Source of the DNA: Escherichia coli | GTDB taxonomy: Bacteria > Pseudomonadota > Gammaproteobacteria > Enterobacterales > Enterobacteriaceae | Length of the DNA: 64,000 nucleotides | Assembly: GCF_048403405.1 (NCBI RefSeq) | Contig: NZ_CP183129.1 | Reading direction: 5' to 3' (one strand) | Shown here: positions 11,773-60,876 of the stretch, one piece after another | How positions within the stretch are numbered: the stretch's first letter is position 1 | Layout of the letters: each line of letters starts with the position of its first letter | The notes under the pieces: generated by a model | What the model was told of the DNA's origin: nothing | The model's database searches: none | What the model saw: only the letters and a program-made list of their open reading frames with translations | Program-made: the position numbers and the translations under genes

Positions 11773-12567
11773 ATGGATCTGTTGTACCGGGTAAAAACGC
11801 TTTGGGCCGCGCTGCGCGGTAATCATTACACCTGGCCTGCTATCGATATCTCTCTTCCCGGCAATCGCCATTTTCATCTGATTGGCAGTATTCATATGGG
11901 CAGCCACGATATGGCTCCCCTGCCCACCCGTTTGCTCAAAAAGCTCAAAAACGCCGATGCGCTGATCGTCGAGGCGGATGTTTCCACCAGCGATACGCCT
12001 TTTGCTAATTTGCCTGCCTGCGAGGCGCTGGAAGAGCGCATTAGCGAGGAGCAACTCCAAAACCTGCAGCACATTAGCCAGGAGATGGGCATTTCTACCT
12101 CACTCTTTTCTACCCAACCGCTGTGGCAAATCGCGATGGTTCTTCAGGCGACGCAGGCACAAAAACTGGGGCTGCGGGCAGAATACGGTATCGATTACCA
12201 GCTATTGCAGGCGGCGAAGCAACAACATAAACCCGTGATTGAACTGGAAGGGGCTGAAAACCAGATTGCCATGTTGCTCCAGCTCCCTGACAACGGACTG
12301 GCGCTGCTGGACGATACGCTGACCCACTGGCACACCAATGCACGGTTGCTGCAACAAATGATGAGCTGGTGGCTGAATGCGCCGCCGCAAAATAATGAAA
12401 TAACGCTGCCTAATACGTTCAGTCAGTCGCTGTATGATGTGCTGATGCATCAGCGAAATCTCGCCTGGCGGGACAAATTATGCGCCATGCCGCCGGGGCG
12501 CTATGTGGTCGCAGTCGGTGCACTACACCTGTATGGAGAAGGGAATTTGCCGCAGATGTTGCGCTAA
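11773..12567 (+). CDS. ybaP: TraB-family protein YbaP (264 aa)
   Basis: Complete ORF with AGGGAGG RBS; sequence recognisable. Confidence 0.9.
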   Translation: MDLLYRVKTLWAALRGNHYTWPAIDISLPGNRHFHLIGSIHMGSHDMAPLPTRLLKKLKNADALIVEADVSTSDTPFANLPACEALEERISEEQLQNLQHISQEMGISTSLFSTQPLWQIAMVLQATQAQKLGLRAEYGIDYQLLQAAKQQHKPVIELEGAENQIAMLLQLPDNGLALLDDTLTHWHTNARLLQQMMSWWLNAPPQNNEITLPNTFSQSLYDVLMHQRNLAWRDKLCAMPPGRYVVAVGALHLYGEGNLPQMLR

Positions 12568-12649
12568 AAAAATGGCCAATATCGCTATTGGCCCGTCAAA
12601 GAGGAATTTCATATTTTTATTATTATGCCGTCACTTTAAGCGACGGTGT
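12566..12649 (-). ncRNA. chiX: ChiX (SroB/MicM) small regulatory RNA, 84 nt
   Basis: Reverse complement reads ACACCGUCGCUUAAAGUGACGGCAUAAUAAUAAAAAUAUGAAAUUCCUCUUUGACGGGCCAAUAGCGAUAUUGGCCAUUUUUUU with the CCUCUUUGACGGG seed and terminator hairpin; lies between ybaP and ybaK. Confidence 0.85.
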
Positions 12650-18324: not shown

Positions 18325-18408
18325 GTAGGCATGATAAGACGCGCCAGCGTCGCATCAGGCATCGAGAGCCAAATGCCAGATGCGGCGTGAACGCCTTATC
18401 TGGCCTAC
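18325..18408. repeat. Two REP units in opposite orientation (BIME) between ybaL and gsk
   Basis: GTAGGCATGATAAGACGCGCCAGCGTCGCATCAGGC and GCCAGATGCGGCGTGAACGCCTTATCTGGCCTAC match the enterobacterial REP pattern. Confidence 0.8.
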
Positions 18409-25724: not shown

Positions 25725-27656
25725 TCAAATGGGGCGGATACTTTCTTCATCCAGCTCCGCATCGAAGAATCGACGCAGGGTCTGAATATTATTATCCGCA
25801 ATAATGGACTCGCGCGCCTGCGCAAGTTTTTCTTCGTATATCGCCTGACGCCATTCCAGCGGCGTACGCACCGCGGGATTATCATCTTCAACGATAGTCA
25901 GTTCAACCGTTGAACCTTTTAACGTGCTCAACGCTTCAGCCAGTTTTTGCTGTGCGCCGCGGTTGTTCAAATGCCGCTGAGAGGAGCGCAAATGCAGACA
26001 TACTGCGTTGTCGCTCTCCTCTTTCCAGGCATTTAACGCCACCTGTTCGACCAGTTTTGGTAGCGAAAGTTGACTCACCTGTGCCGCCCACGGGTCGCGC
26101 TCAATGGCTTCTGCTGCCAGCTTCGCCGCCAGTTCCGGCGTTTTTTCATGTTCCAGCGCTTTTTTCAGCGCCTTCGGCGTGGCGACCACTTCTTTTTGCT
26201 GCATCACTGGAGTGGTCGCCTTCCAGCGATACGCTTCTTTTTTGGCTGGCGCTTTTTCCAGCGCCGATGGCACCGGACGCGCCTGAACGCGATCGGTGAC
26301 CGAAGCCAGTCTTTCCAGCGCAGCGTTATTCACCGGCCGCGCGCGGGTAGCGGCTGCCGGTTCACTCTTTTTTGCTTTGGTTGCTCCCTGCACGCGCTGC
26401 AACTGCTGGCGCGCCGCCAGCACCTGGCTGGTGGTTTCCGGGAGCGGTACAGTCGGTGCCTGCTGCGGCGCTGATTGCGGTTGCGGCGGCACCTGGGTTG
26501 GCGTCATTACTGCCGTTGGCGCGACGGGCGCAAAGGACTGGCGTGGCACTTCTGGCTCAGGTAGCGGCATACGCGGATGGAACGCCAGAGCGCGAAGCAG
26601 CGTCATCTCAACGCCCATACGGCGGTCTGGCGCATACGGTAATTCTTTGCGACCAATCAACAGCGTCTGATAGTAAAGCTGAATATCCGTCGGCGGTATG
26701 GTGCGCGCCAGTTCACGCATCCGCAGCTCGATAGCGGCCATGTCGTTGCCAAGTGCAGCAGGCGAAAGTTGTACCATCGCAATACGATGCAACAGGCCGA
26801 GCATTTCCACCAGCAACGCTTCCCACTCGATACCACGGGCAGCGGCTTCATTAATCAGCGCCATTACGCGCTCGCCGTTGGCCTCGACCATCGCTTCAAC
26901 CAGCGACAGCGCCTGATCGTCGTCAAGCGTACCCAGCATCGCACTGACCGCCTGAGTTGAAACCTGGCCGTCACCGCTGGCAATCGCCTGGTCGGTCAGA
27001 CTTAAGGCATCTCGCAGGCTGCCTTCAGCGGCGCGCGCCAGTAATTGCAACGCCCGCGGCTCGTGAGCGATATGTTCTTCGTTGAGGATGTGCTCAAGCT
27101 GATGGCGAATTTGCTCGACATCCAGCGCCTTGAGATGGAATTGCAGACAGCGCGACAAAATCGTCACCGGCAATTTCTGCGGATCGGTCGTCGCCAGCAG
27201 AAACTTAACGTGCTCCGGCGGCTCTTCAAGGGTTTTTAACAGTGCGTTAAAGCTGTGGCGCGACAGCATATGCACTTCGTCGATCAGATAAACTTTGAAA
27301 CGACCACGCGCCGGAGCGTACTGGACGTTATCCAGCAGGTCGCGAGTGTCTTCAACTTTAGTGCGCGAGGCGGCGTCGATTTCAATCAGATCGACAAAGC
27401 GCCCCTGCTCGATTTCACGACAGTTATCGCACACGCCGCACGGCGTCGCGGTAATGCCGGTTTCGCAGTTTAGCCCCTTCGCCAGCAGTCGGGCGATAGA
27501 GGTTTTTCCGACGCCACGGGTGCCGGAAAAAAGATAAGCATGATGAATACGCCCTAACGACAAGCCGTTCGCCAGTGCGGTCAGCACATGTTCCTGGCCG
27601 ACGACGTCAGCAAAGGTTTGTGGGCGCCATTTTCGGGCTAAGACCTGATAACTCAT
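25725..27656 (-). CDS. dnaX: DNA polymerase III tau subunit (643 aa, full-length product)
   Basis: Complete ORF; AAA+ clamp-loader motifs. Confidence 0.96.
   Translation of the reverse strand: MSYQVLARKWRPQTFADVVGQEHVLTALANGLSLGRIHHAYLFSGTRGVGKTSIARLLAKGLNCETGITATPCGVCDNCREIEQGRFVDLIEIDAASRTKVEDTRDLLDNVQYAPARGRFKVYLIDEVHMLSRHSFNALLKTLEEPPEHVKFLLATTDPQKLPVTILSRCLQFHLKALDVEQIRHQLEHILNEEHIAHEPRALQLLARAAEGSLRDALSLTDQAIASGDGQVSTQAVSAMLGTLDDDQALSLVEAMVEANGERVMALINEAAARGIEWEALLVEMLGLLHRIAMVQLSPAALGNDMAAIELRMRELARTIPPTDIQLYYQTLLIGRKELPYAPDRRMGVEMTLLRALAFHPRMPLPEPEVPRQSFAPVAPTAVMTPTQVPPQPQSAPQQAPTVPLPETTSQVLAARQQLQRVQGATKAKKSEPAAATRARPVNNAALERLASVTDRVQARPVPSALEKAPAKKEAYRWKATTPVMQQKEVVATPKALKKALEHEKTPELAAKLAAEAIERDPWAAQVSQLSLPKLVEQVALNAWKEESDNAVCLHLRSSQRHLNNRGAQQKLAEALSTLKGSTVELTIVEDDNPAVRTPLEWRQAIYEEKLAQARESIIADNNIQTLRRFFDAELDEESIRPI
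26362..27656 (-). CDS. dnaX: DNA polymerase III gamma subunit (431 aa) made by programmed -1 frameshift in dnaX
   Basis: Slippery A-AAA-AAG at codons 428-430 (plus 26367-26373); the -1 frame reads AAA AAA GAG UGA, adding one Glu then a stop at 26362-26364. Confidence 0.85.
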
Positions 27657-28866: not shown

Positions 28867-28935
28867 ATTGAGTGTTGTCAGCTTACAGAGTTGCTACTTT
28901 AGCATAACAATTATCATTTTCATTGAGGTCTTATC

Positions 28936-29463
28936 GTGAAAACCGCCCTGCTGCTGGAAAAACTGGAAGGACAGCTCGCCACGCTGCGTCAGCGTTGTGC
29001 CCCGGTAGCGCAATTTGCCACGCTAAGTGCCCGTTTTGACAGGCACCTTTTTCAGACCCGTGCGACAACACTGCAGGCTTGTCTCGATGAGGCGGGCGAT
29101 AATCTGGCTGCGCTTCGTCATGCGGTTGAGCTGCAACAGCTGCCGCAAGTGGCCTGGCTGGCAGAACATCTGGCGGCGCAACTGGAGGCTATAGCGCGTG
29201 AAGCCACAGCCTGGTCGCTACGCGAGTGGGATAGCGCGCCACCGAAAATTGCCCGCTGGCAGCGTAAACGTATTCAGCATCAGGATTTTGAGCGGCGGCT
29301 AAGTGAGATGGTTGCTGAACGTCGAGCCCGCCTGGCGCGGGTGACCGATCTCGTGGAACAGCAAACGCTGCATCGTGAAGTGGAAGCCTATGAAGCGCGC
29401 CTGGCACGCTGCCGCCATGCGCTGGAAAAAATCGAAAACAGGCTAGCGCGCTTAACCCGCTAG
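28936..29463 (+). CDS. priC: Primosomal replication protein N'' (175 aa)
   Basis: Complete ORF; sequence recognisable. Confidence 0.9.
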
Positions 29464-29476
29464 CAATGGAGAGAGT

Positions 29477-29641
29477 ATGTCACTGGAAAATGCCCCTGAC
29501 GATGTCAAACTGGCTGTCGATTTGATTGTGCTGCTGGAAGAAAATCAGATCCCAGCCCGCACCGTGCTGCGCGCGCTGGATATTGTGAAGCGTGATTATG
29601 AAAAGAAGTTACAGAGCGATGAGGCTTCGCAAAGCGAGTAA
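29477..29641 (+). CDS. ybaM: Small protein YbaM (54 codons)
   Basis: ATG 13 nt after the priC stop; translates [54 protein letters not shown]; below the ORF-track length cutoff. Confidence 0.7.
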
Positions 29642-29646
29642 AAAAT

Positions 29647-29672
29647 AAAGGGCGGCATCACTGTCGCCCTTT
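29647..29672. terminator. Bidirectional terminator hairpin between ybaM and mscK
   Basis: AAAGGGCG-N10-CGCCCTTT flanked by A-rich and T-rich tracts. Confidence 0.65.
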
Positions 29673-29679
29673 ATTGTCC

Positions 29680-32600
29680 TTACCCTACCGCTGGTGTCGG
29701 ATCGTCGCCTTTGTAGTCGCGTTTTACTTCCGTCACCTCATCGCCCTTCTCGTTGTGCAGATGCACTTCAAGCTGGTTAAAGGCAATATTGATGTCATTT
29801 TCACGGCACAGCTGATCGATAGTACGGTTCAGCTCATCGACAGTACGGCTACGGTCACGCAGTTCACGCACATACAGACGCAGCTCATGATCCAACGTGC
29901 TGGCACCAAACGCCGTAAAGAAGACTTCCGGCATTGGTTCGTGCATCACCCTTGGGTGCTCAGTCGCCGCCTTCAGTAACACTTTACGCACTTTTTCCAG
30001 ATCGGAGCCATAGGCCACGCCGAGACGGATCACCAGACGCGTAGTAGTGTCAGTCAACGACCAGTTGATCAGACGCTCGGTAACAAACGCTTTGTTCGGG
30101 ATGATCACTTCTTTGCGATCGAAATCGGTAATCGTTGTCGCACGAATACGGATCTTACTTACCGTCCCCGAGAAGCTACCAATGGTTACCGTATCGCCAA
30201 TGCGCACCGGACGTTCGAACAGAATGATCAAACCGGAGACGAAGTTACCGAAAATTTCTTGTAAACCAAAACCAAGACCTACGGATAATGCTGCTGCCAG
30301 CCACTGGAGTTTATCCCAAGAGACGCCCAGCGACCCGAACACCGTCATCGCACCAACGGCAATAATGATGTAGTTAAGGATGGTAGTAATGGCATACGAC
30401 GCGCCCTGGCGCATATTCAGTCGCGAGAGCACCAGCACTTCCAGCAAACCAGGCAGGTTGCGAATCAACGCCCAGGCCACCATTGAGGCGATAATCGCAA
30501 ACAACAGACTGCCCATGGTGACGTTTTTCACCACCGCAGCACCAGCTTCAGTACCGTTGTAATGCCAGAGCGTAATGCTGTCCAGATAGCTGAACACGGT
30601 GATCAAATCGGACCAAATTGCCCAGAACATGACACCAAACAGCGCAAACATCAGCAACATGGTAATACGCAGCGTCTGCTGGTTAACCTGCTCCAGTGCA
30701 ATGGTGGGTTCTTCCGGCGGTTCAGCACCTTCTGCGCCCTCTTTCACCAGATTCTGCCGACGCGCCAGCGCACGACGCCAGGCGATACGCCGCGCCGCCA
30801 CGCTTAAGCCACGCAGTACTGTCTGGTACAGCAGGTTCCAGATGATCACCAAATAAACGGTTTCAATCCAACGCCCGGAGAGGCGCAGCGTGGTGTAGAA
30901 ATAACCCGTGGCGGTCAGCACCATCAACGCAATCGGGATAATCGACAGTACGGTAATGGTGACCAGTCGCATGGTGTGCGACTCTTTATCACGCCAGCTT
31001 TCGCGGCACATCGGCCATACCAGGAAGGCAATCAGCAGCAGGTTGAAGAAAATCATAGCCTGCCCCAGCACATCATCCATCAGATGCAGCGGGGAAAGTT
31101 CTGCCACCACAGACCAGAAATGGATAGGCAGCAATGCGAGACTGATGCGGACAATTTGCCGACGCCAGTGGCTGGTCTGCTGTTCCGGCATACCAAAGTG
31201 ACGCACGGCAACGCCGTTTTTCTCCAGTACCTTCCAGCACAGGCCAAACACCAGCCAGAAAATCGCCAGTTTTTTACTGAACGACCATAGCAGTTCGCTG
31301 ATGTTGAGCTGCATGGTCAACAGAATCAGGCCAACCGCGAGAATAATCAGGCACACCGGCAGCGCACGGATCAGGTCGATAAGGATCGCTTTTGGTGTGT
31401 TGAGCTGGCTGTCGTTACGCAGGGAACCCACAGCGGAAGCCAGTTTTTGTTGATACGCTTTCAGCCAGCCCAGACGCCAGTGGATCAGCCCGGCAATCAA
31501 CAGCAGCGGCAAACCGGCGAGGAAAGCGATAAAAACGGCAGGCCAGGCTTTTTCCCAGTTCACCGTGATTTTCATCGACTTAAATTCATCTTTCAGGCTT
31601 TGCGGGAACGCTTTGATCCAGTCCCAGTCCATTGGACGGTTACTGTTCACCCAAAAGATTTGCTGAGTCAGGATGGATTTCAGGTTTTTCGACACACTCA
31701 TTAACTGCTGCTGGTTGATTTGCAGGTTAATGGCCATCATCAGCTGGTTACCCAACTGTTTGTTAAGCTGATCCAGCAATTCGCGACGCATATCAACTAC
31801 TTGCAATAACGCATCGTGAACTTCGCTGTTGACTTCGTTGGTGTGACCTTCTTCCAGTTTGTTGACGAACGCATCGCTCTGGAAGAGTGCATCACGCTGC
31901 TGGTTAACTTCAAACTGTTCGAGACGCAAATCCGCGATGCGGTTGGTCATGTTTTCCAGTTCATCCGCCGAGGGCAGCGTTTGTTGTTGCTGGTAAAGGA
32001 TACGAGACAACAGCAGGCTGCCCTTCAGGACGGCAATCTGCTCTTTAATATTGCGTTCCGATTGAAGCGCCCGCTCCAGCCAGTTTTTGACTTTAATGTT
32101 TTGCTGCATCAACTGATTACCGTTTTCAGTCGCTGTAATCAGACGCTGACTTAACTGCTGGTTAATTTCCAGTTCCTGCTTCACCAGCGGATTAGCCTGA
32201 ATACGCGCGGCTTCATCCGGGGAGACGGCTTCCTGCGCCGTTTTTTCGGTTAAAGTCAGGCGCTTGCTGTTTACTGCTTCTTGCAACAGCTGCAACTGGT
32301 GCTCCAGACGGGCGCTGTTCGCCGTCACGTAATCCCGTTGCTTTTGCAAGGTATCCTGTAAGACTGTGTTCCCTTCCAGGCTTTTACGCTGCTGGTCAAT
32401 CTCGGCATTCAGCAAAGCCTGCTGAGCCTGCATTAACACTTTCTGGCTGGGACGTAAGGCAGTCTCGCCGACATCAGTCCCATCCAGACGACTGCGAATT
32501 TGTTGCAGCTGCTGCGAAGCGTTATACATCGCATTTTGCACGCGTTCGGGCTGCGTCTGTAACGAAACCAACTGGCTGTTATAAGACGCCAGATCGTTTT

Positions 32601-33042
32601 GTGCGTTTTGCAAATCGTCCAGCGCCTGGGCAACGCGAGTTTCCAGCTGGCGCAACGAAAGCGTACTCAGAATTTTGCGCGTTTCTTCGTCGTTATCGAC
32701 ATCGCTAAGTGCTGTTAACGCCGCGGTCGCCTGGCGCATTTTTTCCGGCGCTTCAGCGACTTTTTGCCGTAGCTGAACTGTCTCTTCTTTTACGCGATCG
32801 ATTTTATCGAGGGTGGCTAATGTATCTGTCAGATCCTGCTGCACCAGTTTGTCCTGAGCAGAAAGATCTTTTTGTTTATTTAGTGAGTCAAGTTGTGCCT
32901 GCAGGTCCGCTTTTGTCGGCAGATCACCATTCGATGACGCCCGCGCAAACGCCGTGTTCTGGCATAACAAGACAAAAACAAAAGCAATAAATGCTGAAAA
33001 AACAAAATGCCGTGATCGTTTGTAATACTGGAACATAGTCAT
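29680..33042 (-). CDS. mscK: Potassium-dependent mechanosensitive channel MscK (1120 aa)
   Basis: Complete ORF; long coiled-coil periplasmic domain plus MscS-like C-terminal channel domain. Confidence 0.95.
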   Translation of the reverse strand: MTMFQYYKRSRHFVFSAFIAFVFVLLCQNTAFARASSNGDLPTKADLQAQLDSLNKQKDLSAQDKLVQQDLTDTLATLDKIDRVKEETVQLRQKVAEAPEKMRQATAALTALSDVDNDEETRKILSTLSLRQLETRVAQALDDLQNAQNDLASYNSQLVSLQTQPERVQNAMYNASQQLQQIRSRLDGTDVGETALRPSQKVLMQAQQALLNAEIDQQRKSLEGNTVLQDTLQKQRDYVTANSARLEHQLQLLQEAVNSKRLTLTEKTAQEAVSPDEAARIQANPLVKQELEINQQLSQRLITATENGNQLMQQNIKVKNWLERALQSERNIKEQIAVLKGSLLLSRILYQQQQTLPSADELENMTNRIADLRLEQFEVNQQRDALFQSDAFVNKLEEGHTNEVNSEVHDALLQVVDMRRELLDQLNKQLGNQLMMAINLQINQQQLMSVSKNLKSILTQQIFWVNSNRPMDWDWIKAFPQSLKDEFKSMKITVNWEKAWPAVFIAFLAGLPLLLIAGLIHWRLGWLKAYQQKLASAVGSLRNDSQLNTPKAILIDLIRALPVCLIILAVGLILLTMQLNISELLWSFSKKLAIFWLVFGLCWKVLEKNGVAVRHFGMPEQQTSHWRRQIVRISLALLPIHFWSVVAELSPLHLMDDVLGQAMIFFNLLLIAFLVWPMCRESWRDKESHTMRLVTITVLSIIPIALMVLTATGYFYTTLRLSGRWIETVYLVIIWNLLYQTVLRGLSVAARRIAWRRALARRQNLVKEGAEGAEPPEEPTIALEQVNQQTLRITMLLMFALFGVMFWAIWSDLITVFSYLDSITLWHYNGTEAGAAVVKNVTMGSLLFAIIASMVAWALIRNLPGLLEVLVLSRLNMRQGASYAITTILNYIIIAVGAMTVFGSLGVSWDKLQWLAAALSVGLGFGLQEIFGNFVSGLIILFERPVRIGDTVTIGSFSGTVSKIRIRATTITDFDRKEVIIPNKAFVTERLINWSLTDTTTRLVIRLGVAYGSDLEKVRKVLLKAATEHPRVMHEPMPEVFFTAFGASTLDHELRLYVRELRDRSRTVDELNRTIDQLCRENDINIAFNQLEVHLHNEKGDEVTEVKRDYKGDDPTPAVG

Positions 33043-43016: not shown

Positions 43017-43130
43017 GGGTGGGGGCCCTGCCAGCTACATCCCGGCACACGCGTCATCTGCCTTGGCTGCTTCCTTCCGGACCTGACCTGGTAAACAGAG
43101 TAGCGTTGCGGGAGAACCAACAGAGCCCCC
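43017..43130 (-). ncRNA. ffs: 4.5S RNA (signal recognition particle RNA), 114 nt
   Basis: Reverse complement reads GGGGGCUCUGUUGGUUCUCCCGCAACGCUACUCUGUUUACCAGGUCAGGUCCGGAAGGAAGCAGCCAAGGCAGAUGACGCGUGUGCCGGGAUGUAGCUGGCAGGGCCCCCACCC. Confidence 0.95.
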
Positions 43131-60689: not shown

Positions 60690-60772
60690 AGAGCTCTCTC
60701 TTAGTTTAATTTCCGCCAGGTAATCAGATGACACGACTGTGCTTCACGCCATCTATTAACATGTACGTCAGT

Positions 60773-60799
60773 ATATGGGGATGTTTCCCCCACATTCAA
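60773..60799 (-). promoter_or_regulatory. sigma32 heat-shock promoter of lon
   Basis: Minus strand reads TTGAAT-N13-CCCCATAT, about 85 nt upstream of the lon ATG. Confidence 0.75.
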
Positions 60800-60876
60800 C
60801 GCCGAGAATAGAGGAAAAATTAAAGGGGAGATAAAATCCCCCCTTTTTGGTTAACTAATTGTATGGGAATGGTTAA

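Follow-up and report, generated by a model that had tools for sequence, protein, structure and literature searches.

The 54-codon reading frame at positions 29477..29641 (+) of the window, the 64,000-nt stretch of Escherichia coli contig NZ_CP183129.1 analysed here, is almost certainly rsmS (formerly ybaM), and we favor, at a probability of about 0.85, the overall explanation that it is the second gene of a priC-rsmS operon and acts in the Csr/Rsm network. Neither the gene nor its annotation in public genomes is new, and the window adds nothing to what is known of rsmS. An initial annotation of this DNA had proposed a 54-codon frame 13 nt after priC that was absent from the open reading frame (ORF) track; when the ORFs of the window are listed down to 20 aa, this frame is present, running from ATG to TAA and encoding 54 aa, and the priC stop ends at 29463, leaving a gap of exactly 13 nt (29464-29476). 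The frame had been missed because its 54 codons fall short of the 60-aa default cutoff of the ORF lister, as the annotation had supposed; the cutoff hid a real, annotated gene, and the small-gene blind spots of the track are real. RsmS would also be an understudied input to a global regulator, CsrA, that bears on virulence, biofilm and CRISPR-Cas expression.

The identity of the frame is carried by profile matches, annotation and orthology. Two family profiles recognize the predicted protein above their cutoffs: Pfam DUF2496 (PF10689) scores 84.7 bits (cutoff 25; E 3.7e-24) over all 43 profile positions, and the NCBIfam RsmS equivalog NF008266 scores 94 bits (cutoff 76) over all 46. In the 100%-identical genome of E. 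coli 118UI, RefSeq labels the same 165 nt as "rsmS: pleiotropic regulatory protein RsmS" (WP_000051143.1), and of 5426 complete E. coli genomes searched with megablast, 5424 have the region, with the annotated order priC, rsmS, mscK. Every sequence-level defining feature of the RsmS/YbaM family that we tested was found in the frame, including a length of ~50-65 aa, a conserved core (residues 2-44, corresponding to DUF2496) containing the pattern A-L-x-I-V-x-x-D, and a variable, acidic/polar tail. The proposed match to the small conserved gene ybaM is borne out by K-12 MG1655, in which b0466 (ybaM) likewise lies between priC and mscK and is identical at 45 of 52 residues. The identification needs updating in its details: the gene is now named rsmS, and in K-12 it encodes 53 aa with a different set of last ~9 residues.

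On this comparative evidence, rsmS is a conserved gene that codes for protein and evolves under purifying selection. For codons 1-45, with orthologues fetched together with their context from Klebsiella, Citrobacter, Salmonella and Trabulsiella, dN/dS is 0.057-0.145 against these genera and BL21; dS against the four genera is ~0.8-1.0, and third codon positions take 17-22 of the 24-31 substitutions. Among 12 enterobacterial RsmS sequences, 26 core positions are invariant, while among 90 diverse sequences A13, A33 and D40 are invariant and L12, V14, D15, L16, I17, L20, E21 and L34 are ≥90% conserved. A 54-codon ORF is statistically ordinary, and many overlapping ORFs of comparable length occur around it, as would be expected if this were a chance, untranslated reading frame in the 3' untranslated region of priC; length alone is not beyond chance, and rsmS is accepted as a gene because it is conserved. 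The strong purifying selection, the HMM matches above curated Pfam and NCBIfam cutoffs, the breadth of the family (179 representative homologues at 50% identity, with relatives in at least 588 species genomes), the conserved Shine-Dalgarno sequence and the confident fold predicted for the protein effectively exclude that alternative. Expression is implied by the cited phenotypes of E. coli K-12 mutants (see below). A scan of positions 28900-29700 against Rfam gave no overlap with an RNA family, and there is therefore no evidence for a known small RNA or riboswitch in place of the coding sequence. Elsewhere in the window, five Rfam matches reach the gathering score, all of them expected for this region of E. 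coli: sroB (12566-12649, -), naRNA4 (18328-18405, -), which is a REP-derived nucleoid-associated RNA, the dnaX frameshifting element (26328-26392, -), 4.5S SRP RNA (43026-43122, -) and sraA (60761-60856, +).

The gene upstream, at 28936..29463 (+), encodes the 175-aa primosomal replication protein N'' PriC from a GTG start, as assigned from its ORF, its Pfam match (PriC, E 2.4e-51), an NCBIfam equivalog score of 331.7 bits against a cutoff of 249 and the RefSeq annotation of the identical genome. Within the 13-nt gap we read directly a Shine-Dalgarno sequence, GGAGAG (29468..29473, +), whose GGAG core (29468-29471) lies 5 nt before the rsmS ATG, and a GGAG/AGGAG-type motif is found at the same place 5' of rsmS in nearly all of ~90 orthologous loci. 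Upstream genes were compared in the best 80 of at least 588 genomes with an rsmS relative, these 80 being nearly all from Enterobacterales; every Enterobacterales locus among them has priC 5' of rsmS in the same orientation, and more than 50 enterobacterial loci have a gap of 11-19 nt. No sigma-70-like promoter turned up inside priC in a consensus scan of the + strand, which is consistent with expression of rsmS from the operon but does not prove it. Published genetics point the same way: in Pectobacterium, insertions in priC have polar effects on rsmS, and supplying rsmS, but not priC, complements them (Monson 2019, PMC6418279), E. coli ybaM complementation required the priC promoter (PMC6418279), and a review of replication restart also gives priC-ybaM as an operon. 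Read together with this literature, rsmS would be transcribed from the priC promoter.

The mscK gene, which encodes a mechanosensitive channel of 1120 aa, is convergent with rsmS (29680..33042, -; stop codon 29680-29682; ORF and RefSeq annotation), and the 38-nt spacer between its stop codon and that of rsmS (29641) is filled by a 14-bp hairpin at 29644..29675, with stem arms at 29644-29657 and 29662-29675 and a 4-nt loop at 29658-29661. The initial annotation had the ORF ending in a terminator hairpin shared with mscK; the hairpin is there, but the frame stops 2 nt before it rather than inside it, and the hairpin in turn ends 4 nt before the mscK stop. Its stem has a GC-rich core, GGGCGGC/GUCGCCC, extended by A/U pairs, and is bordered by an A-run and, at the opposite side, a T-run. 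The computed folding energies are -22.2 kcal/mol for the + strand (z -5.8) and -22.5 kcal/mol for the - strand (z -6.2), values reached by 0 of 200 shuffled sequences. The U-tract that follows the GC core is TTTATTTTTT on the - strand, which is good, and TTTATTGTCCTT on the + strand, which is weaker and interrupted; a consensus terminator scan reported a site on the + strand only, with a 5-pair stem at 29651-29665. Based on these features, we read the hairpin as a putative bidirectional intrinsic terminator for priC-rsmS (+) and mscK (-), at which the priC-rsmS transcript would end.

Comparison with K-12 showed that the single shared hairpin is real in the window but does not describe K-12. 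The two strains share the priC-ybaM pair convergent with mscK, the 13-nt gap and the Shine-Dalgarno sequence, and residues 1-45 of YbaM (b0466) and the window protein are identical except for R28S (87% identity overall, 45/52). The K-12 protein of 53 aa, however, has the tail TRDDEAEK, whereas the window protein of 54 aa has the tail QSDEASQSE. In K-12 and BL21, the end ...LTRDDEAEK is followed by a 211-bp spacer in which two REP-type palindromes lie between two separate, similar small hairpins; in the window, a single 32-nt hairpin in the 38-nt spacer takes the place of this REP-bearing arrangement. Because the K-12/BL21 spacer is 211 bp long with separate hairpins, the single shared hairpin is a feature of a compact haplotype and not of K-12. 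The regions compared (window 29610-29679; the K-12 locus L094, 1390-1660, -; and L002, 1810-2047) place the haplotype breakpoint inside the last ~9 rsmS codons, and the whole spacer also differs. In E. albertii and some E. coli, RsmS ends ...LTRDDEAQSEK and has 55 aa; relative to these alleles, K-12 rsmS carries an additional G, by which the reading frame runs into a TGA sooner, and its tail resembles a +1-nt frameshifted form of DDEAQSEK. The window tail resembles those of Citrobacter and Salmonella (...ASQTD and ...DSQTE). With a 111-nt probe across the tail and hairpin and at least 80% of the probe covered, the compact haplotype (54 aa, 38-nt spacer, one hairpin) was found in ~1345 of 5426 complete E. 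coli genomes (~25%), including O157:H7 and O25:H4.

Across 56 loci the rsmS-mscK spacer ranges from -13 to 1171 nt and is ≤82 nt in 31 of them, and the 38-nt spacer of the window is typical of the compact arrangement found in many genera. In Morganella (L030, L041, L063 and L084), the rsmS and mscK frames run into each other by 13 nt at their 3' ends, which leaves no room for a terminator hairpin between them. The interval is also a variable spot in Enterobacteriaceae. An intact YhgA/Rpn-like gene (Transposase_31 plus HTH_Rpn_C) lies between rsmS and mscK in Citrobacter (L005, 3238-4161); the Salmonella copy (L006, 3238-4160) is broken by an in-frame TAG, its first 247 aa still matching Pfam with E 7e-88; and Klebsiella (L004, 3547-3732) has a 61-aa YhgA/Rpn-like remnant. 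K-12-type E. coli have REP elements in the interval, and in the window the interval holds no such insertion.

The structure of RsmS was modelled with AlphaFold2 from a 90-sequence alignment, which predicts with high confidence (mean pLDDT 91.9) two helices (H8-22 and H27-53) arranged as an antiparallel hairpin; the acidic tail is variable, and model confidence falls in the last residues. A sequence search found no solved structure related to the single RsmS sequence, and the only match of the 90-sequence profile, JIP3, was rejected as a structural relative because its E value of 0.24 is at chance level. Fold comparison of the model likewise gave no informative relative among solved structures.

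Contrary to a published statement, rsmS does not always follow priC immediately outside Enterobacteriaceae, as seen in Pantoea, Erwinia and Thalassotalea loci. Pantoea/Erwinia-type (Erwiniaceae) genomes have a priC-rsmS gap of ~300 nt (about 290-340 nt), which in Pantoea agglomerans (L065, 2747-2992) holds an 81-aa, very hydrophobic ORF; a YeaQ/GlsB-type label for this ORF was dropped, since it had no Pfam match at E ≤ 0.001. The gene order in Thalassotalea is PPK2-rsmS-SLT, and on a contig whose RsmS clusters at 90% identity with that of Shewanella gelidii, rsmS is followed by a gene for a Card1-type nuclease. A 1134-aa Chryseobacterium "sugar-binding protein" (P0263) falls in the 90%-identity cluster of a 57-aa Pseudoalteromonas RsmS (P0152), almost certainly as a database clustering artefact.

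Three of eight non-enteric contexts, in independent loci of Alteromonadales-type gammaproteobacteria, have rsmS directly 3' of comFB, abutting or overlapping it: L013 (2232-2674) in Pseudoalteromonas aurantia, and L008 (1827-2292) and L009 (1562-2048) on metagenomic contigs. The comFB assignments rest on Pfam E values of 5e-15 to 1e-18; the gene order in P. aurantia is priC-comFB-rsmS, and priC lies upstream in two of the three loci. According to PMC12448109, ComFB proteins are receptors for c-di-NMP (c-di-GMP/c-di-AMP); its section on genomic neighbourhoods does not mention rsmS as a comFB neighbour, and we did not find the adjacency in the searchable ComFB or RsmS literature. The arrangement suggests an ancestral priC-comFB-rsmS operon, with a possible cyclic-dinucleotide input to RsmS. 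That RsmS is an output module coupling cyclic-dinucleotide sensing to CsrA, with the sensor lost in Enterobacteriaceae, is an improbable extension of this idea, and we regard the adjacency as a lead and not as a finding.

The functional assignment draws on genetics from other enterobacteria. In two Pectobacterium species, an rsmS mutation bypasses the loss of rsmB and raises RsmA-repressed outputs (PMC6418279). In Serratia, an rsmS mutant shows increased expression of the RsmA-repressed cas genes of three CRISPR-Cas systems, and the effect is additive with that of pigX (csrD); the rsmA phenotype is unaltered when combined with any other pathway mutation, and rsmS is epistatically below rsmA (PMC8450108). 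For E. coli itself, PMC6418279 quotes an unvalidated yeast two-hybrid contact between YbaM and CsrA, a reduced ybaM mRNA half-life in csrA51, a halving of priC-ybaM mRNA in a csrD mutant and, second-hand, a competitive defect under envelope stress. A ybaM deletion also appears in the gene table of a Congo-red curli screen of the Keio collection (PMC5745457). By analogy with the Pectobacterium and Serratia genetics, RsmS is probably involved in the Csr/Rsm pathway of E. coli.

How RsmS would act in this pathway is a matter of more tentative choice. The proposed mechanism, to which we give slightly less than even odds, is that RsmS binds the RNA-binding regulator CsrA (RsmA) directly and enhances its action: bound RsmS would make CsrA act more efficiently on its target mRNAs, and this effect would be independent of the CsrB/RsmB decoy RNA. 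PMC8450108 describes a direct interaction as "shown in Pectobacterium," but the paper that it cites, PMC6418279, proposes it only as a tentative model, and we found no biochemical test of RsmS-CsrA binding in the literature. RsmS could instead act indirectly, through the stability of CsrA protein or mRNA or through another partner, and not by enhancing RNA binding by CsrA; we consider this somewhat unlikely, as the Serratia epistasis has rsmS acting upstream of rsmA and independently of both rsmB and pigX (PMC8450108), and a two-hybrid contact with CsrA is reported among the results quoted in PMC6418279. A still different possibility is that RsmS is tied to PriC and replication restart and that the regulatory phenotypes are secondary. 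The linkage of priC and rsmS, which is very tight and conserved throughout Enterobacterales, speaks for such a tie, as does the fact that priC is still near rsmS in Pseudoalteromonas and at locus L008. We nevertheless judge it very improbable: the Pectobacterium priC insertion is complemented by rsmS and not by priC (PMC6418279), the synthetic lethality of E. coli priC303 with dnaA-ts is complemented by priC alone in published genetics, and rsmS occurs without priC outside Enterobacterales, as in the Thalassotalea locus. A role for RsmS in the Csr/Rsm network, encoded as the second gene of the priC operon, is the explanation that we favor.

The closest characterized system is RsmS of Pectobacterium atrosepticum (ECA1172), the founding functionally characterised member of the family (Monson et al. 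2019). It shares with the window protein a pfam10689 domain over residues 2-44 and a position downstream of priC in one operon, although the intergenic gap is 37 bp in P. atrosepticum compared with 13 nt in the window. Its mutant phenotypes, which concern plant cell-wall enzymes, OHHL and carbapenem, are without a direct E. coli counterpart, and the function would carry over to E. coli by extrapolation. FliW of Bacillus and CesT of enteropathogenic E. coli (EPEC) are small proteins whose effect on a CsrA-family regulator comes from protein-protein contact and not from a decoy RNA; both are CsrA antagonists, and their folds are unrelated to that of RsmS. The likeness to RsmS lies in the proposed protein contact with CsrA, with the difference that RsmS, a 54-aa predicted helical hairpin, is proposed to assist the regulator.
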